Shown piece by piece: positions 10,212 to 39,530 of a DNA stretch of 64,000 nucleotides (its first letter is position 1; each line of letters begins with the position of its first letter). The stretch lies in the IMG/VR virus record IMGVR_UViG_2061766007_000275; one strand, 5' to 3'. Position numbers and translations under genes: made by a program. The notes below the pieces were generated by a model. It searched no databases. It was not told the origin of the DNA and was given only the letters and a program-made list of their open reading frames with translations. This DNA is from an uncultured virus (IMG/VR IMGVR_UViG_2061766007_000275). Taxonomy: Duplodnaviria; Heunggongvirae; Uroviricota; Caudoviricetes.

Positions 10212-11269
10212 TACTATTATTTGATAACACCTGCTCAGAAGAGCAGGTGAGCAATCCTCAATGGGTATGGAATAATTGGGGTGATGGAATACCTTGTTTA
10301 TCATACAGTGAAGCAAATAAACTTAATAATTTTTACTTTGGCGGGAATGGGCATATCGGAATAATGGTTGGGTATGAAACCGCAAAACTTAGGGGGTGGA
10401 CATAATGTGTCAGTGTTTTATTTGTAATAAGGCAGTCAATGAAGATAACTCAATCGGTAGAGATTGCTTGTTAATGTGTAATGAATGTGAAACCAAAATT
10501 GGTAAAAAACTTAATATGCAAAACCATGTAATATTTAGCGTAGTTTTAGCAATGGGTTTCTTAAAAGAAAAATATATGGAAGAAGAAGCTATAAAAGCAG
10601 AAGAAAGAAAATGGAAAGATTACCTTGCTCTGGATGAATTAGCCGCAAAATCAAGGGGGTTGATATAATGAAACAAATTATAAAACAAGGATATGTTAAA
10701 CCGCAATATATCACTGAATGTAATAACTGCCACACATTATTTAGTTTTACTGATGATGATACAGAATATGCAAATGCATCGTATAGTACAGAACAATATG
10801 TTAGATGTCCTTATTGTGGCTATGAAGTATTAGACAGACATTGGGAAAAAGCTAACGAGGCTGAAGGAGGTATGCAAAATGAATGATGATTATGATTTCT
10901 GGGGACAAGCTTGGTCAGAGGACGATGTTGAAATTAAAATAGGTGATAAAACATTTTGGTTAACTAAAAAAGGATTGATTGAATTAATAAATTTTTTAGT
11001 CCAGTTATTAGGACAGACCTAATGAATGAAGAAGAGGGTGATGAATAATGAATGATATTTTTGATAATCAGAACTTAAAAGTTAATGATTTTCAGACACG
11101 ATGCGTGTTAAAAAACAATTTTGGTAGAGATGAAATTATTGATGTATATGCTTACTCTGATACTCTTATCGAGGTTTGTTTAGATGATAAAATTTTAATA
11201 TCATTTGCTAACAAAGATAATTTAATTCTATTTATAAATGCTTTAACCACTGCTTTAGGACTTGTGTAA
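10208..11269 (+). other. operon of small hypothetical genes (10208-10405, ~10405-10668, 10668-10886 zinc-ribbon, 11048-11269)
   Basis: Coupled ORFs with SDs; CxxC pairs in two of them. Confidence 0.65.
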
Positions 11270-11410
11270 ACAAGTCCTTTTTTATTGTATGCTTTTGGCT
11301 GGGCGCAAGCTGGCGCAGCGCCCAGTTTCCAGCCTCTCTCACCCCTCCCTAGCTTTTATATGCGCGATTTTTGCTGGATTTAGCTTGCCCCTAAAATCCC
11401 GAAATTCAAT
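11256..11410 (+). repeat. Intergenic module copy 10, degenerate downstream (27-nt hairpin 11299-11325)
   Basis: Terminator AGGACTTGT/ACAAGTCCT; CTGGGCGC/GCGCCCAG; AAAATCCCGAAA. Confidence 0.75.
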
Positions 11411-11799
11411 AGCCAACCATAACGCCCTACTTTTCAAGCTTTTATGCTCCAGGAACCGGGTTCCCGCCAATAGCAACTAGTATAAGGGGGGTTTAAAGGG
11501 GAGGGGTATGCGGCCTTTGACAAATTATAAAAATTATGTTATAATACGGAGGGGTGTTCTTCACCACCCTATAAATCAATAGCAAATCAATCATGCGGGC
11601 CGGGGGTGTTGGCGCATAGTTGACAAATTAAAAAAATTTTGTTATAATATTAAAAAAAGACTATTTTTTCTCCCAATAGCCAAAGAATAAAAGAGTGCGG
11701 CGGGCGGGTATACAGCGTTATACGAGTGCTTTTAAAAAATTGCATAGGGTGTTGTAAAATGAACCTAGGTTAGGGGCACCCCACCTCCTCAATGATATA

Positions 11800-24519: not shown

Positions 24520-25278
24520 ATGAATTATAATGAACGTCAGGTTCTTGATGCTTTAAACAATCTTGATAAGGTAATAAACGAAGATGAATTATGTGATGAT
24601 TGTTTATGCTGTATTAGCGATGATATATATGATTGTACTAATTATAATGAAGATAATTGCGATATTTGTAGTGGAGCAAGCAAAGTTTGTATCATTCCTA
24701 AAGATGCAGATTATGTTATAAAAATTCCTTATTACTATCTATCAGACGACTCAAGCTCTGGGTTCTATAACTCATATGGTTATTGGGAGCCTAACGAGGA
24801 TGGAGGTAGATGTGAATTGTTTTATAATTATTGCAATCGTGAAGCAAACTTTTATAAAAAAGCTGAAACCGAATATAAAGGTGCTGAATTATTCCTTGCA
24901 AAAACTCAGAGAATTTTTAGAGGTAATGTAATTGAAGGATATGTTCAGGAAAAAGTAACTTGTTATTATGATTATCCTAAGGATAATGATTATGATTATG
25001 ATAAAGATTATGTTTATGATACAATAGAAGAAGATTATCGTAAAACTTCAAAGAATTCTTTAATCGGAGAAGTGCTTGATGATGATTTGTTTTGTGGTAT
25101 TCCTAGTTTTTGGTATAAGAAATTATTAGAATATGCAGTAAAAAATAACGCATTATCAGCAGTTGAAAACTTCTTTAAGTTTTTACTTGATAGTCGTATC
25201 AATGACTTAAATCCTAAAAATATTGGTTTCATCAATGATAAGCCTGTATTAATGGATTATGCTGGTTGGGAATGTTAA
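24520..25278 (+). CDS. protein-kinase-like (PKL) fold enzyme
   Basis: GASK, VIKIP, helix-C E, DLNPKNIG catalytic loop, LMDYAG. Confidence 0.7.
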   Translation: MNYNERQVLDALNNLDKVINEDELCDDCLCCISDDIYDCTNYNEDNCDICSGASKVCIIPKDADYVIKIPYYYLSDDSSSGFYNSYGYWEPNEDGGRCELFYNYCNREANFYKKAETEYKGAELFLAKTQRIFRGNVIEGYVQEKVTCYYDYPKDNDYDYDKDYVYDTIEEDYRKTSKNSLIGEVLDDDLFCGIPSFWYKKLLEYAVKNNALSAVENFFKFLLDSRINDLNPKNIGFINDKPVLMDYAGWEC

Positions 25279-25293
25279 GAAAGGAGAGTAAAG

Positions 25294-25748
25294 ATGGCTA
25301 AAGACAGGGCTATTTTATGTAGATTTTATATTTGTCGTGGGAAGTGTGAAAAAGGTAGAGATGCTAATTATAATGGCTTGTGTCAGCGTTGCCAGCTTTA
25401 TGAAAAAGCTCCGCATAGGAAGCCTTCCCGCACAAATGGCAAAAGAAACAAAGAAAAAGACAAATATATCGAATAAGGAGAATTAATATGGCTTTAATAT
25501 TTAAACAAAAAGGTTTTGGTGAGGTTCCCGCAAATATATTAAAAAATTTTGGTAATGGCTCCTCAATAATTACTATTGTAGAAAAAGGACCTAAGTTTTA
25601 TAGGTTTTATGGTCAAACAGGTGAAATATATTGGAGTTTTGTATATCCACCTAGTCAATATTGTTTAGATATGACTTGTAAAATGTTAAGGTATCCTAAT
25701 TGTATGGAAATTACAGAAGATGAATATAAGAAAGGAAGTGTAGACTAA
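25294..25748 (+). other. two small hypothetical genes (25294-25476 Cys-rich, 25488-25748)
   Basis: ORFs with SDs. Confidence 0.65.
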
Positions 25749-25750
25749 CA

Positions 25751-26962
25751 ATGTTAAATGCAAAAGGAGAGCGTGAATTAGCTTATGCTGTTGGTATTGA
25801 TGCTATTGAACCTATTGTTGGTTCTGACAACTGTGAGTGTGCGGTTGTTAATGGATGGAATATTCTTGTAAAGAAGAATGAATTTAAGCCCGGCGACATT
25901 GCAGTATATTTTGAAATAGATGCTAAAGTAGATCCGGAAAATCCTGCATTTGCTTTTCTTGAGAAGAAGCATTATGCAATAAAGACCCAGAAGTATACCT
26001 TCGGTGGGCGGGGTAATTTTATCTCACAGGGATTAATTATGCGGTTTGCTGACCTTGGTATTGAACCTGTAACTGAAGGAACTTTTTTAACTGAACAGTT
26101 AAAAGTTACTTATTATGTTCCAGAAGATAACAAGCGTAAGGCTGCTAACCCTGAGGATAAGTATAAGAAGATGGCTCAGCGTCATCCAACTATCTTCCGC
26201 AAGGGTTTTGTTAAGTGGCTTATGAAGAGAAATTGGGGTAAGAAATTACTATTCTTAATCTTCGGCAAGAAGAGAGTACCAGATACTGCTTTTCCTACTT
26301 GCTTCCCTTATATTAAGAAAACTGATCAGGAACGTTGCGAAAATATGACTTGGGTTCTTCAGGATAAAACTCCATTTATAGTAACTCAGAAATGTGATGG
26401 AAGTTCAGGTACTTATATTCTTGCAAGAAAGAAAAAGAGAAAGAATAAGTTTGAATTTTATGTATGTAGCCGTAATGTAAGACAGCTTACTCCAGACCAG
26501 AAATCTTTCTATGATGATAATTACTACTGGGAATGTGCTATTAAGTATGATATTGAAGCAAAACTTAAAGATTATCTTGAAAAGCATCCAGAGTTAGATT
26601 ATATTTGCTGGCAAGGTGAAGTATGTTCACCTAGCATTCAAAAAAATCCACACGGGTTAACTGAAACTCATCTATTCTGTTTCCATATGATAGATAGTCA
26701 GCGTGGAAAATATGATATGCGTGATGCTATCAAAATTTGGAAAGAATATGGAATGGAAACTGTCCCTATTGTTAATGAAAATTATATTCTTCCAGATGAT
26801 TTTGAAGCTTTTAAAGATAGTGCAACTGGATTTTATGATGCTAGTGTTTGTGAAGGTAAAACTCAGCAGGCTCGTGAAGGATATGTATATTATAAGACTA
26901 CTGATCCAGCATTTAGTTTTAAAAATGTAAGCCGTGAATATTTATTAGCTCATAATGGATAA
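25751..26962 (+). CDS. RNA ligase (Rnl2/DRB0094-like)
   Basis: Nucleotidyltransferase motifs KCDGSS, SRN, QGE, FCF, EGYV, FKNVS; N-terminal OB-like domain. Confidence 0.9.
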   Translation: MLNAKGERELAYAVGIDAIEPIVGSDNCECAVVNGWNILVKKNEFKPGDIAVYFEIDAKVDPENPAFAFLEKKHYAIKTQKYTFGGRGNFISQGLIMRFADLGIEPVTEGTFLTEQLKVTYYVPEDNKRKAANPEDKYKKMAQRHPTIFRKGFVKWLMKRNWGKKLLFLIFGKKRVPDTAFPTCFPYIKKTDQERCENMTWVLQDKTPFIVTQKCDGSSGTYILARKKKRKNKFEFYVCSRNVRQLTPDQKSFYDDNYYWECAIKYDIEAKLKDYLEKHPELDYICWQGEVCSPSIQKNPHGLTETHLFCFHMIDSQRGKYDMRDAIKIWKEYGMETVPIVNENYILPDDFEAFKDSATGFYDASVCEGKTQQAREGYVYYKTTDPAFSFKNVSREYLLAHNG

Positions 26963-31730: not shown

Positions 31731-31791
31731 TTTGGATCGGATGATTTTATTCATCAATTTATTATTTTATTATTTTATTTTTAATTAATGT

Positions 31792-31874
31792 AAAGCACAT
31801 ACAGCAACCAAAAATTTTTTTCAAGCCTACAATAAATAATGGATTTATTACATTTTGAGAAAAAACAGTGCTTT
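31792..31874 (+). ncRNA. ANRCAGCAA-bulge RNA, copy a
   Basis: AAAGCAC-ATACAGCAA...GTGCTTT. Confidence 0.7.
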
Positions 31875-32034
31875 GAGTAAATAAGAGATAGATTAAGCTA
31901 TCAGTTATTGGGTGCAAGTCCCAACTTATTTATCCGATGAAGAAACCCCCTTTACTTTTATTACCCAAAGTTTGATTGATTGGTTTGTTTGTGAGTTTTA
32001 TGTACCAATGGTAAAAAACAGAAAACTCACTTTT

Positions 32035-32163: not shown

Positions 32164-33738
32164 ATGAGTTACAATTTATTTGTAGATAAGTTAGAAAATG
32201 AAATAGGTAATGTATCTGTTACTGAAAATGGTGCGCTTGGTTACGCTACTTCAGGCAAGGCTATTCTTGATATGAATTTTAAAATTTCTAGTTATCGCAA
32301 CCGTACTGCGACAGAAATTATAAAAGATTTTAACCGTGCCCTTAATGAAACTCCCAATGTAGCATTAAAGTGGTTATTCTTTGCGCGGGATGTGCGTGGT
32401 GGCGCCGGAGAGCGTAGATTATTCAGAATTTGTATGCACTGGCTTGCAGAGCAGTATCCTGACCTCGTAAGAGAATTTATCCCTATCATAGCAGATTATG
32501 GTCGTTATGATGATGTTCTTGAATTAGTTAGCGTAGCCGAACTTCGTGATTATGTTGCTAAGTATGTTTGGGAAACTTTAACTAGCGATATGGATAATTA
32601 TGAGCAGAAGAAGAGTATTTCCTTACTTGCTAAGTGGATGCCTTCAGAAAATGCAAGCTCACCGGCTACTAGAGCCGCAGCCCGCAACTGGATGAAGAGA
32701 TTAGGTTTAGCCCCTCGTGTATATCGTAAGTTACTTTCAAAGCTTCGTGCTTATATAGATGTAACTGAAGTTAAGATGTCAAATAACGAGTGGAGTAAAA
32801 TCGACTATGAAGCAGTTCCTTCAAAGGCTAATCTTAATTATAAAGAAGCTTTTATGCGTCATGATGCAGACCGCAGACAGGCTTATTTAAATGCTCTTCA
32901 GAAAGGTGAAGCTAAGATTAATGCGGCAACCCTCTTCCCGCACGAGATCTTTAGTAAAGTAGACCGTCTTGTAGGTAATTGGCGTCCAATTCCCGCAGAT
33001 GTAGTTGCTCTTGAAGCTATGTGGAAGGCACTACCTGACTATGTAAAAGGAGAAGGTTCTACTATCTGTGTTAGAGATGGTTCAGGTTCTATGATGTCTA
33101 CTCTTGATGGAAGTTATGATAGTTCAAAGCCTTCTTGTCTTGATGTTGCATCTGCACTTTCTGTGTACTTTGCAGAGAGATGTTCTGGTGCTTTTAAGGA
33201 TAAGTTTATTACCTTCAGTGCTCGTCCTCAGTTTGTAGATATGTCTGAATGCAAGACTCTTGCAGAAAAGGCTAAGCTACTTCGCAAATACAACGAGTGC
33301 GATAACACCAATATTGAAGCTGTATTTAATCTTATTCTTGATTTAGCTGTAAAAAATAGAATGTCTCAGAAGGATCTCCCTAAGAACATCCTTATTTTAT
33401 CAGATATGGAATTTGATTCTTGTACACAGAGTAGCTATTGGAGCAGTAGAAGTTTTAATAATCCATCAGCGAAGTTATTTGACGAGATTAAGAGAAGATA
33501 CGAAAGAGCAGGCTACAAGCTTCCTCGTTTAGTATTCTGGAACATCAACTCTCGTACAAATACAGTACCTCTTATGCAGAATGACCTCGGTGTTGCTCTT
33601 GTAAGTGGTTTCTCAACTGCTATTGTTAAGATGGTTCTTTCAGGCAAACTCGATCCATTCGAGTGTCTAGTAGAAACTCTTAATGATAAGAGATATGATG
33701 CAGTTGATGCAGCAATTAAGAGATATGTCACTAAGTGA
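32164..33738 (+). CDS. DUF2828-family protein (TROVE/Ro60-like helical domain plus vWA)
   Basis: TENGA, RDVRGGAGER, AKWMPSE, YEAVPSKA; vWA MIDAS DGSGSM, NTN, SDMEFD, VFWN, VSGFS. Confidence 0.85.
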   Translation: MSYNLFVDKLENEIGNVSVTENGALGYATSGKAILDMNFKISSYRNRTATEIIKDFNRALNETPNVALKWLFFARDVRGGAGERRLFRICMHWLAEQYPDLVREFIPIIADYGRYDDVLELVSVAELRDYVAKYVWETLTSDMDNYEQKKSISLLAKWMPSENASSPATRAAARNWMKRLGLAPRVYRKLLSKLRAYIDVTEVKMSNNEWSKIDYEAVPSKANLNYKEAFMRHDADRRQAYLNALQKGEAKINAATLFPHEIFSKVDRLVGNWRPIPADVVALEAMWKALPDYVKGEGSTICVRDGSGSMMSTLDGSYDSSKPSCLDVASALSVYFAERCSGAFKDKFITFSARPQFVDMSECKTLAEKAKLLRKYNECDNTNIEAVFNLILDLAVKNRMSQKDLPKNILILSDMEFDSCTQSSYWSSRSFNNPSAKLFDEIKRRYERAGYKLPRLVFWNINSRTNTVPLMQNDLGVALVSGFSTAIVKMVLSGKLDPFECLVETLNDKRYDAVDAAIKRYVTK

Positions 33739-34116: not shown

Positions 34117-34233
34117 GAGGGAAGTAGCTTAATGGATAAAGCACGTATAAAGTGTCTAGTTATTTTTGACGCAAACAGCAATTTATATGGACTTGCGGAT
34201 CCCGTGATAGAGGTTCAAATCCTCTCTTCCCTC
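34117..34233 (+). ncRNA. tRNA-like RNA (His-like G-1:C73) interrupted by a permuted ANRCAGCAA module
   Basis: AGGGAAG/CTTCCCT acceptor, intact D and T arms, 43-nt hairpin inserted in the anticodon stem. Confidence 0.75.
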
Positions 34234-35212: not shown

Positions 35213-35498
35213 TTAAAGGTTGGATACCTTTAACCAAAATCTCTCGTGGGTTCGTCATACGATAAAGGATGTACGCTCCATATAAAGCGGATATATGGCG
35301 GTAGGTTGGTATATCGTGATTGTTACCATCCAGTGATGAACTGATCAGCATCCGGATTGACTCAACCGTTAGCGAGTGGTTCTCGCAGAGTTGATTTTTT
35401 AAAAAATTTTTGTTATAATATATATAGAAAATGAGAAAGGAAGTATAAAGATTATGTTTAAGCGAAAACAGAATTTTACATTTAAGAAAAAAATGTAT

Positions 35499-35570
35499 GC
35501 GTCCGTAGCCTAATGGTTAGGCACAGAACTTTTAATTCTGGGTATGCGGGTTCGAGTCCCGTCGGGCGTA
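35499..35570 (+). tRNA. tRNA-Lys(TTT)
   Basis: CAGAA-CTTTTAA-TTCTG. Confidence 0.92.
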
Positions 35571-35638
35571 TCAAAGAGAGGAGCTGGTACGAATCCAGCG
35601 ATAAAGTTGAGTAGTAAGGAGACGCCTCTCTTTCATAA

Positions 35639-35712
35639 GCCTGCGTAACTCAATCGGCTAGAGTAGCAGACTCTTAATCTGAAGGTTCCGGGTTCAAATC
35701 CCGGTGCAGGCA
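35639..35712 (+). tRNA. tRNA-Lys(CTT)
   Basis: CAGA-CTCTTAA-TCTG. Confidence 0.92.
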
Positions 35713-35717
35713 CTTCC

Positions 35718-35789
35718 GTCCTCTTAGCCAATCGGTATAGGCACCAGACTGAAAATCTGGTAGACTTGGTTCGACTCCAAGACTGGACA
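35718..35789 (+). tRNA. tRNA-Phe(GAA)
   Basis: CCAGA-CTGAAAA-TCTGG; two acceptor mismatches. Confidence 0.8.
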
Positions 35790-35797
35790 TTTCTTAT

Positions 35798-35860
35798 AAG
35801 ACTCATACAGCAATTTTACTTTGCATTAGACTTTTAACCTAACACGCAGAAATGAGTCTT
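35798..35860 (+). ncRNA. ANRCAGCAA-bulge RNA, copy b (Lys anticodon-like loop)
   Basis: AAGACTC-ATACAGCAA...GAGTCTT enclosing TTAGA-CTTTTAA-CCTAA. Confidence 0.75.
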
Positions 35861-35866
35861 GATTAT

Positions 35867-35941
35867 TCCTCCGTCGCCAAGTGGTAAGGCGCGTGACTGT
35901 TAATCACGTATTTTTCGCTGGTTCGATCCCAGCCGGAGGAG
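35867..35941 (+). tRNA. tRNA-Asn(GTT)
   Basis: CGTGA-CTGTTAA-TCACG. Confidence 0.93.
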
Positions 35942-35944
35942 CTA

Positions 35945-36022
35945 TAAGCTCAAACAGCAACTTTTAAAATTATCTTACCAAATTATTAAAAATAGCTTAG
36001 GGATAAGGCGAAAACGAGCTTA
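35945..36022 (+). ncRNA. ANRCAGCAA-bulge RNA, copy c
   Basis: TAAGCTC-AAACAGCAA...GAGCTTA. Confidence 0.7.
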
Positions 36023-36027
36023 GCAAT

Positions 36028-36098
36028 GTCTCCATCGTACAACGGTAGTACTCTTGACTTGTAATCAAGGTATGGCGGTTCAAATCCGTCTGGAGGCT
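36028..36098 (+). tRNA. tRNA-Thr(TGT)
   Basis: CTTGA-CTTGTAA-TCAAG. Confidence 0.9.
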
Positions 36099-36664
36099 GG
36101 TTCCTTTCGAGGACATCGTCAAAACAGGATTTCTACCTTTCTGATGGCAGAGACGATATAAAAATAAACAGGCAGAGAAAGGTAGATAAAATTAATATAA
36201 GACGCTGTGAATATAGGCGGGGTTAGTTATAAACATCATTCAAGGTGACCTAAAATCCTCGTTAGGGTAATACATGAGAGCTGCTCCTATGGCTGAAGGC
36301 TCTTGTCTTATATCATATAAGATTAAGGAGTGGAGAACCTACCAATAGGTGAAATGATATATCCTATGGTCGTGCTAATACGTATTAGATAATCTTATAT
36401 GCGTTACGCACCTACCTATACGATAAATAGGGGAAGTGTGATAGGGTGTATATTATTATTAAATGTATATTATTATTAAAAGTAAGAAAATTTAATAATT
36501 TAGTCACACCTAAATTGTTTTATGATTTTACTTTTATAGAAAAGTTTTGTTTAACGAAAGTACTGATTTTGAGGAGTTGGATGTGGAGGGCTATGCAGAT
36601 CCATTTAATATCTGGCATAGAGTAAAATAGGTAGCAAGTAGAATAAATAAAACTTTTTGAATTT

Positions 36665-36738
36665 GGGGCTGTAGCTCTAATTGGGAGAGCGCCTGCCTTG
36701 CAAGCAGGAGGTTGTGGGTTCGAAGCCCATCAGTTCCA
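36665..36738 (+). tRNA. tRNA-Ala(TGC)
   Basis: CCTGC-CTTGCAA-GCAGG; G3:U70. Confidence 0.93.
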
Positions 36739-36744
36739 TTACAT

Positions 36745-36822
36745 TAGGCTCATGCAGCAATCTTACATTATTCTTAAAACATCAAATTTGGGATTTGAAC
36801 AGCGTTGAAGATAATGAGCCTA
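36745..36822 (+). ncRNA. ANRCAGCAA-bulge RNA, copy d (Pro anticodon-like loop)
   Basis: TAGGCTC-ATGCAGCAA...GAGCCTA enclosing TCAAA-TTTGGGA-TTTGA. Confidence 0.75.
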
Positions 36823-36827
36823 GATAA

Positions 36828-36900
36828 CTCCCGTTAGTCTAAAGGAAGTGACGCCAGCCTTTCAAGCTGGAGATGCTGGGTTCGATTCCCGCACGGGGGA
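36828..36900 (+). tRNA. tRNA-Glu(TTC)
   Basis: CCAGC-CTTTCAA-GCTGG. Confidence 0.88.
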
Positions 36901-37043
36901 CTGTAAATAATTAAAAAGGAGTAAATTATGCAATACTTTTTATATGGATTTTTAGTAATATTAGGCTTTATTGGTGGATTATTTACATATCCTTTTATTA
37001 AAGAATTGCGTGAAGATGAATTTTTAGATTAAGGAGGAAAATC

Positions 37044-37724: not shown

Positions 37725-37728
37725 TATT

Positions 37729-37844
37729 TGGGCACAGACAGCAAATTGTTTTGTTACAAGACTTGATGCACATTTAAGGAGGGGAAGGGCTTTTAAGCAT
37801 TCTCATTTATTGAGCCTACGGGTTGGGGTATTCGTTCGTGCCCA
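37729..37844 (+). ncRNA. ANRCAGCAA-bulge RNA, copy e
   Basis: TGGGCAC-AGACAGCAA...GTGCCCA. Confidence 0.7.
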
Positions 37845-37897
37845 GTATAGAACATATGAATACCCAACTTGTTTGCTTTCTTTTAAAGGAGTAAAAT

Positions 37898-38395: not shown

Positions 38396-38470
38396 CGAGG
38401 TGTAATTCAGTTTGGCTAGAATGCTAGATTTGGGATCTAGATGTCGTCGGTTCAAGTCCGGCTACCTCGA
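38396..38470 (+). tRNA. tRNA-Pro(TGG)
   Basis: CTAGA-TTTGGGA-TCTAG. Confidence 0.92.
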
Positions 38471-38669: not shown

Positions 38670-38822
38670 CTTTTATCCTCTTCTGGGGAGAGTGGTAGAA
38701 ATCCACAATGTTGTTAAGAAGTCTGAAGCGCAATCAGAAACCTTGCAACGGACCAGCGGGAAGCCGGCATACGTCCCACTCCCACCAGAAGAGGATAAGA
38801 AAAGCCCATCACGAACTTATTT

Positions 38823-38895: not shown

Positions 38896-38898
38896 TTT

Positions 38899-39020
38899 TA
38901 GGCTCAGACAGCAACTTATCGCACAAGATAGCTAGAATAGTCAAACGGTTAAGACATTTTCCCTAAAAGAAGATAATTCCGGTTCAAATCCGGATTCGAG
39001 CACTATGTATAATGAGCCTA
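38899..39020 (+). ncRNA. ANRCAGCAA-bulge RNA, copy f, enclosing a degenerate tRNA (38931-39002)
   Basis: TAGGCTC-AGACAGCAA...GAGCCTA; inner cloverleaf with TCCGG-TTCAAAT-CCGGA. Confidence 0.75.
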
Positions 39021-39061
39021 GTATATTGTAAATAATTAACTTAATATAAAGGAGAAAATAT

Positions 39062-39483: not shown

Positions 39484-39490
39484 AAATAGA

Positions 39491-39530
39491 AAAAGGCGTA
39501 GAGTATTAAACTCTACGCCTTCTTTTTTTT
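39491..39530. terminator. bidirectional intrinsic terminator at the strand convergence
   Basis: AAGGCGTAGAGT/ACTCTACGCCTT flanked by A- and T-tracts. Confidence 0.85.

Follow-up and report, generated by a model that had tools for sequence, protein, structure and literature searches.

We describe a family of small RNAs, here called handle RNAs, found in a 64,000-nucleotide (nt) stretch of an uncultured virus of the Caudoviricetes (IMG/VR IMGVR_UViG_2061766007_000275; hereafter the window) and in its relatives, and our sequence comparisons indicate that the anticodon loops displayed by some of them are a selected feature of the family. The window is phage-like, and seven small elements are scattered among its tRNAs, in each of which ACAGCAA (GCAGCAA in copy d) comes after the 5' strand of a closing stem. 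CANACAGCAA occurs six times in the window, always on the + strand, against 0.57 occurrences expected. Two of the copies, b and d (Table 1), have a central hairpin whose 7-nt loop is identical to an anticodon loop of the phage's own tRNAs, namely CTTTTAA of tRNA-Lys(UUU) in copy b and TTTGGGA of tRNA-Pro(UGG) in copy d. The original prediction for this DNA had started from these two loops, and its reading of the letters was confirmed for both. Taking a 5-bp stem, a 7-nt loop, U33, a purine at 37 and a loop found in real tRNAs as the marks of an anticodon arm, copy d has all of them and copy b all but the 31-39 pair. The prediction had also listed CTTTTAA in copy e; the letters are there, but they are not a displayed loop, and since no stem flanks them they do not mimic an anticodon arm.

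Relatives of the DUF2828 protein, whose gene lies inside the tRNA array of the window, led to 92 IMG/VR loci, and 93 sources were scanned (loci are denoted by L and a number below). Pooling all loci gave 334 strict handles, 285 of them unique, in 263 clusters with 196 short non-redundant representatives. Hairpins with a stem of at least 4 bp were compared with the 56 anticodon loops that occur two or more times among 468 phage tRNA genes, and 38 of the 196 short handles contain one with such a real-tRNA loop, compared with 0.93 +/- 0.97 (maximum 4) in 300 dinucleotide shuffles. The apical loops of the homologues are thus enriched in real anticodon loops rather than random, and the shuffles rule out chance or AT-richness as their source. 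A 7-nt-loop hairpin fitting Y-U-NNN-R-N was likewise present in 49 of 129 unique strict handles, against 11.6 +/- 3.2 in shuffles; 33 of these 129 are anticodon-like only, 8 have a T loop only, 5 have both, 3 enclose a called tRNA, 1 overlaps one and 79 fall in none of these classes. It had been cautioned in the original prediction that a lone CTTTTAA means little in AT-rich DNA and that its apical position is the stronger point. CTTTTAA is flanked by a stem in 16 of 23 occurrences within strict handles and in 45 of 1096 elsewhere in the same loci, and the payload loops are centred at 0.53 +/- 0.04 of the interior (n = 38).

Lys(UUU) is the commonest payload identity (15 of the 38), followed by Asn(GUU) with 5, Ser(UGA) and Ser(GCU) with 4 each, Pro(UGG) with 3, Ile(GAU) with 2 and five singletons. 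Among payloads the Lys loop accounts for 39%, among tRNA genes for 3.4% (31/910), an approximately elevenfold excess (P 7e-13). In 22 unique Lys-type handles and copy b it stays unchanged across 17 different stems, whose five pairs all vary on both sides; these rows were selected for pairing, so that their figure of 97% paired arises by construction, which the variety of the stems does not. Of the 38 payloads, 28 have a stem of exactly 5 bp, the most frequent frame has a bulge of 1 nt on the 5' side and one of 3 nt on the 3' side (15/38), and A31-U39 is kept in 20 of 23 Lys-type handles and 20 of 32 phage tRNA-Lys genes, a weak trend. These patterns bear on the possibility that handles derive from tRNA genes or YrlA-like RNAs and that the arms are remnants in decay, with no function of their own. 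Every intermediate is indeed present, from a whole tRNA through a permuted body with an anticodon arm to a T arm or an anticodon arm only, and many members have no recognisable part. Decay, however, should erode loops at least as much as stems, whereas here the loop persists on changing stems of steady length and with a marked preference for Lys, and we consider an origin as mere relics highly improbable.

Handle RNAs and their Ro60-like neighbour

A mechanical scan of the 93 sources for the motif together with an uninterrupted closing stem of 7 bp or more gave 382 matches on the strand of the gene (+) and 66 on the opposite strand; when the conserved stem base was also required, the numbers were 137 and 1, and 59 of the 93 sources had at least one such match. 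The consensus is U(U/A)AGRC-n-ACAGCAA ... GYCU(A/U)G, with the motif on the 5' side after the terminal stem, a C favoured three bases upstream of the motif, and G-poor loop sides. Because the inner stem varies between copies and the consensus ends form a U...G wobble, pairing is at the RNA level, and the handles form a real, strand-specific RNA family. An alternative is that they are not RNA at all but small mobile DNA elements settling between tRNA genes, which would account for multi-copy units of 50-120 bp with terminal inverted repeats in tRNA arrays. Such elements are hard to reconcile with the strand bias, with an inner stem half that varies among copies while pairing is kept, and with a conserved end pair that, as T...G, pairs only as RNA; moreover, there is no linked transposase, and the linked gene is Ro60-like. 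The strand bias and the RNA-only pairing lead us to reject this explanation, which we find hardly credible.

The handles are specifically linked to the DUF2828 gene. In a test independent of that gene, IMG/VR was scanned with one handle pattern, giving 80 loci with flanks, 65 with true handles and 15 chance-like. The gene was found in 49 of the 65 and in none of the 15, in all 49 on the same strand as the handles and mostly 0-2 kb downstream. The same scan of the genomes of 185,579 bacterial and archaeal species found the gene with 13 of 26 true handles and with none of 56 chance-like matches; the 13 loci lie on contigs of metagenome-assembled genomes or draft assemblies, except for one isolate, a Thermoactinomyces strain. 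In the window, the copies are 0.3-5.3 kb away from the gene, on the same strand.

Pfam recognises only DUF7788 and DUF2828 in the encoded protein and gives no match to TROVE, and a profile of its sequence reached TROVE chains among PDB sequences only at E 0.25. Sequence methods falling short of TROVE, the link to Ro60 needed the predicted fold. All of the 13 best Foldseek matches in the PDB to an AlphaFold model (pLDDT 79) are Ro60/TROVE structures, comprising phage phiLo Ro60, D. radiodurans Rsr, and human and Xenopus Ro60 (best E 3.8e-9, TM 0.51-0.57, about 530 aligned columns). The model has the fold of Ro60/TROVE proteins, that is, a HEAT-repeat ring with a vWA domain, so the description of the neighbouring protein as Ro60-like, already part of the original prediction, is upheld at the level of predicted structure. 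Within the vWA domain, D305, S307 and S309 of the metal ion-dependent adhesion site (DxSxS) are invariant in 13 homologues.

Genes of RNA-repair type lie within about 6 kb in several of 12 sampled loci, with RtcB in L008 and L070, a protein resembling polynucleotide kinase (PNK-like AAA_33) in L009 and L086, and RlaP and Rnl in L086; in Listeria phage LP-124, RtcB, an RNA ligase and a phosphoesterase are near the DUF2828 gene. Genes for TerD, TerC and vWA-TerF-like proteins are also found near it in two relatives (L003 5485-6889 and L009 14581-16069).

Relatives of the DUF2828 protein are present in 710 GenBank records of cultured phages, including relatives of Felix O1, P100/A511 and mycobacteriophages, and IMG/VR has at least 557 DUF2828 loci. 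Seven GenBank loci, picked by identity band and not at random, represent phages of E. coli, Listeria, Enterococcus, Cronobacter, Fusobacterium, Mycobacterium and Klebsiella, and in all seven handle RNAs stand beside the gene. YrlA-like members occur in four of the seven, and a Ser(GCU)-type arm in mycobacteriophage Jobypre, within the handle stretch L220 11475-11731. In the Felixounavirus heid (L215), handles lie at 10713-10779, 11268-11335 and 11355-11480. In the Listeria phage CKA15, the Rsr-like protein CKA15_055, a candidate for the DUF2828 homologue, was detected in purified virions with 57% sequence coverage (PMC12282133), and a trio of handles adjoins a DUF2828-type gene in sister phages of CKA15; it may be that this protein is injected along with the DNA. 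The most transcribed non-coding region reported for CKA15 (26,236-26,727; PMC12282133) was considered as a candidate for the trio and rejected, as the trio maps to 25,207-25,608 and the region corresponds to a ROOL RNA. Such an RNA (RF03087, 87.4 bits, E 1e-17, just below the gathering score) lies at L216 5018-5569 in Listeria phage LP-124, between the tRNA array and three handle RNAs.

Likeness to Y RNAs and to other phage systems

The handles resemble YrlA and phage Y RNAs (PMC4201824; RF02553) in being small RNAs next to, and on the same strand as, a Ro60-type gene, and in combining a terminal stem that bears a conserved 5'-side motif with a tRNA-mimicking module. Some members also share the body of T arm, closed acceptor and D arm. 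The best relative in this respect, L079 2885-2990, aligns end to end with the Rfam YrlA model (49.2 bits, E 2.5e-10), with the T arm, closed acceptor and D arm well matched and the Ro-binding stem not. The permuted tRNA-like domain is present in L079, L076, L009 (at 12091), L008 (at 11999) and L215 (at 11355), and members with such a body additionally retain an anticodon arm. Whole tRNAs or tRNA-like sequences are enclosed by copy f of the window, by L005 4551-4654 (Ile(gat)) and by L013 9279-9375 (Lys(ttt)); the one in copy f is called tRNA-Leu(taa) by ARAGORN, yet it has C33 and no long variable arm. With T arms and permuted YrlA-type tRNA bodies as further payload types, members that enclose whole tRNAs or YrlA-type mimics show these to be modular, Y-RNA-like molecules with parts of tRNAs as payloads. 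The tRNA-like RNA at 34118-34233 of the window (Table 1) contains a mini-handle within its insertion, made up of a 5-bp stem (34170-34174/34193-34197) and ACAGCAA at 34175-34181; its topology is the same as that of YrlA, except that its ends are at the acceptor stem.

Despite these similarities, the family falls outside YrlA. Its protein partner is DUF2828/DUF7788 by Pfam and not TROVE, and its motif is (A/G)CAGCAA instead of the GNCGAAN0-1G near the 5' end of YrlA (Chen 2014, PMC4201824); ACAGCAA is absent from the five of six supplementary files of Chen 2014 that are searchable. There are many copies per phage, and some payloads are bare arms whose loops are exact anticodon loops, a feature missing from YrlA. 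Copies b and d have no T arm, closed acceptor or D arm, which sets them apart from the tRNA-like part of YrlA, and with no cloverleaf neither is called as a tRNA by ARAGORN or the Rfam tRNA model. RF02553 gives no hit at E<=10 on the handles of the window, and none of the relatives reaches its gathering threshold of 69 bits. A literature search, bioRxiv supplements and one supplement of Chen 2014 lying outside it, returned no prior description of anticodon arms on Y-like RNAs.

Among phages, the closest parallel is Thermus phage phiLo, whose Ro60 is the best structural match to the DUF2828 model, at a sequence identity of about 15-16%. There, too, a Ro60-type ring protein is accompanied by phage-encoded Y-like RNAs upstream, Yrl1 and Yrl2 (PMC12135203; PDB 9KOP, 9L5Y). 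Unlike the handles, the phiLo RNAs were selected by the CGAA motif and bind polynucleotide phosphorylase, and the available text of that study describes no display of anticodon arms (PMC12135203). A second parallel is phage T5, whose nuclease-resistant tRNA-Lys, -Thr and -Asn counter PARIS AriB (PMC11464382, PMC12409363); these are likewise a phage RNA answer encoded in a tRNA array, and Lys(UUU) and Asn(GUU), with Pro(UGG) to a minor extent, stand out both in the handles and among the AriB targets (PMC12409363). However, the T5 tRNAs are working replacements, whereas handles b and d, without acceptor, D and T arms, cannot decode, and so, if they act on a nuclease, would do so as competitors. 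Finally, the repair of PrrC-cut tRNA-Lys by T4 Pnk and Rnl1 (PMC7824862) shares the focus on tRNA-Lys(UUU) and the presence of RNA ligase and kinase genes in the neighbourhood, but is an enzymatic repair after the cut, described there without an RNA mimic or a Ro60-like protein.

What the anticodon arms may do

We favour, tentatively and with somewhat less than even confidence, the reading that anticodon-arm payloads are pseudo-substrates for host proteins that read anticodons, chiefly defence nucleases, and a function as decoy or bait is plausible. The constant handle would dock the RNA on the Ro60-like DUF2828 protein of the phage, and the variable payload would present a part of a tRNA, be it an anticodon arm as in copies b and d or a whole tRNA, a T arm or a permuted body as elsewhere. 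The handle RNAs would probably be freed together with the tRNAs by processing of the RNase P and RNase Z type; 96 of the 285 unique handles are within 30 nt of a tRNA gene, and in the window the gaps are 2-8 nt for copies b, c, d and f, copy b starting 8 nt past tRNA-Phe and ending 6 nt short of tRNA-Asn, and copy d sitting between tRNA-Ala and tRNA-Glu with gaps of 5 nt. Once free, the arms would occupy host proteins that read certain anticodon loops, chiefly nucleases that cut tRNA-Lys, -Asn, -Pro and others, either by plain competition or by retaining the nucleases on the Ro60-like particle, and would act beside the phage's spare tRNAs and RNA-repair enzymes.

Several reports make such pseudo-substrates a reasonable proposition. 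As the original prediction had stated, tRNA-Lys(UUU) is a target of PrrC (PMC1484252) and of PARIS AriB, and AriB also cuts Thr(UGU), Asn(GUU) and, to a minor extent, Pro(UGG) (PMC12409363). A Cas13b cleaves anticodon arms even when these are isolated (PMC13692257), YrlA has been suggested to inhibit an anticodon nuclease by competition (PMC7790460), and the Ro60-like gp130 of phage Bas63, encoded just upstream of tRNAs, counters a defence system (PMC11482910).

A number of points weigh against this reading. About 80% of the short handles (158/196) have no real anticodon loop, and many of them are AT-rich with weak folds. Since most handles lack a recognisable tRNA part, the label of anticodon decoy fits a subclass and not the family. 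In copy b, the loop-closing 31-39 pair of the central hairpin is an A.C mismatch, and the fold is one of 4 bp with a 9-nt loop (pair probabilities of 0.69-0.85 for the four pairs). The anticodon hairpin of copy d is not the minimum free energy fold; in single-sequence folding a rival hairpin is better by 2.8 kcal/mol and the anticodon stem-loop has a pair probability of about 0.03, so that support for this mimic comes from relatives, in which TTTGGG[AGT] loops occur on other stems. Payload anticodons showed no signal when compared with the tRNA genes of the same locus (8/16 versus 7.4 expected). AriB also needs contacts with the D loop (PMC12409363), which a bare anticodon arm may not satisfy, and for the Ser(UGA) and Ser(GCU) arms (8/38) the portions of the cited literature at hand name no matching anticodon nuclease. 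We infer the expression of the handle RNAs, their binding to the protein and their action as decoys. Contigs from four RNA libraries that map to 35400-37000 leave copies b, c and d uncovered, which is uninformative either way on expression; the same contigs cover the tRNA-Lys/tRNA-Phe stretch, 36102-36641 and the tRNA-Ala gene.

It may instead be that the arms address, as bait or as substrate, not nucleases but host proteins that modify tRNAs or otherwise bind them, recruiting enzymes of positions 34/37 or anticodon-reading synthetases to the particle, or needing the modifications themselves. Many payload loops (Lys, Asn, Ser(GCU) and Ile) end in U36-A37, the context of t6A37 (N6-threonylcarbamoyladenosine at position 37). 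In addition, YrlA receives modifications from tRNA enzymes and is a substrate of RNase P, which cuts it (Chen 2014, PMC4201824). No single enzyme, however, fits Lys(UUU), Ser(UGA) and Pro(UGG) together, and the neighbouring genes are those of RNA repair and not of modification. Ser arms are found among the payloads (8/38) although the anticodon is not read by seryl-tRNA synthetase, and we regard this explanation as unlikely. The repair genes could, on the other hand, speak for a sentinel, in which an activated host nuclease is supposed to cut the arm, whereupon the cleaved RNA, or the Ro60-like protein once released, switches on or guides RNA repair by the phage. Cyclic-phosphate tRNA halves switch on the rsr-yrlBA-rtcBA repair operon of Salmonella (PMC7790460), and RtcB, Rnl and PNK-like genes are found near the DUF2828 gene. 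Against it, no sensor or regulator domain is seen in the DUF2828 protein, cleavage of the handles is hypothetical and a separate sentinel would be required for each target; we judge it less likely still than an interaction with modification enzymes.

Returning to the nuclease pseudo-substrates, a more far-reaching version, which we consider doubtful, is that the Ro60-like protein and its handles form a programmable display platform, with one docking handle and interchangeable, nuclease-recognised tRNA parts. If so, the set of payloads would be a readable record of the tRNA-targeting defences that a phage has met, and swapping a payload would retarget the countermeasure. Cleavage of tRNA is now viewed as a common defence against phages (PrrC, PARIS, retron effectors, Cas13), and the answers of phages described in the literature cited here are spare tRNAs and RNA repair. 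An anticodon-arm RNA mounted on a Ro60-like particle would, if true, be a third answer, and would assign a definite task to the Y RNAs of bacteria and phages. For Bas63 gp130 a phenotype of counter-defence is already on record, but no RNA partner is described (PMC11482910). As the protein is widespread and handles accompany it in all of the sampled GenBank loci, the idea is directly testable in laboratory systems.

The tRNA array of the window

Eighteen of the 20 tRNA genes of the window lie between 32034 and 39003, on the + strand (Table 1). The five identical promoter-like sites, which fall within a longer repeated sequence, putatively drive the array of tRNAs and handles, and a terminator-like hairpin (39493-39521, within 39490-39524) closes it. 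About 5 kb upstream of the DUF2828 gene there is a gene for an RNA ligase.

Table 1. Handle RNAs and other features of the window (positions count from its first nucleotide).
Feature	Position	Strand	Description
RNA ligase gene	25751..26962	+	PHA02142 OB-fold and RNA_ligase
Promoter-like sites, five identical	31258, 33750, 33845, 35391, 37466	+	TTGATT, 17 nt, TATAAT, with TG
Handle copy a	31791..31875	+	AT-rich interior; no tRNA-like payload recognised
Ro60-like protein gene	32164..33738	+	Inside array; Pfam DUF7788 E 5e-46, DUF2828 E 1e-40; vWA domain
tRNA-like RNA	34118..34233	+	Rfam tRNA 45 bits; 50-nt insertion in place of anticodon arm
Promoter-like site TTGATT-17-TATAAT with TG	35391..35419	+	For copies b, c and d, the closest upstream site of this kind
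tRNA-Lys(ttt)	35498..35572	+	Anticodon loop identical to loop of copy b
Handle copy b	35797..35861	+	Closing stem of 10 bp, then ACAGCAA; Lys(UUU)-type anticodon arm inside an outer helix of 5 bp, with bulges of 1 nt before it and 3 nt after it
Anticodon-arm mimic of copy b	35826..35842	+	Loop CTTTTAA, 4 bp and A.C mismatch
Handle copy c	35945..36022	+	No convincing payload hairpin; fold z-score -0.2
Handle copy d	36744..36823	+	Closing stem of 10 bp; motif in the form GCAGCAA; anticodon arm of Pro(UGG) type
Anticodon-arm mimic of copy d	36782..36798	+	Perfect 5-bp stem, loop TTTGGGA
Handle copy e	37728..37845	+	118 nt; CTTTTAA at 37790-37796, not stem-closed
tRNA-Pro(tgg)	38396..38470	+	Anticodon loop identical to loop of copy d
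Handle copy f	38898..39021	+	Encloses whole tRNA-like 38931-39003
Terminator-like hairpin	39490-39524		Strong, bidirectional; closes tRNA array

Bovine gut metagenome DNA runs, a possible source of the window, contain 0.92-0.99 of the words sampled from 35400-37000 (1.6 kb), and a near-identity search of GenBank phages with the region returned only seven records, in each of which about 1% of the query aligned, at the tRNA-Ala gene or next to it. The spacer between tRNA-Gly and tRNA-Gln (38671-38820) has neither the handle motif nor an Rfam match; it is richer in GC, a long inverted repeat closes it, and it may be a structured RNA. Between tRNA-Thr and tRNA-Ala, about 560 nt (36100-36660) have no open reading frame and no Rfam match, and parts of it (36102-36641) are covered by contigs from RNA libraries of three studies.

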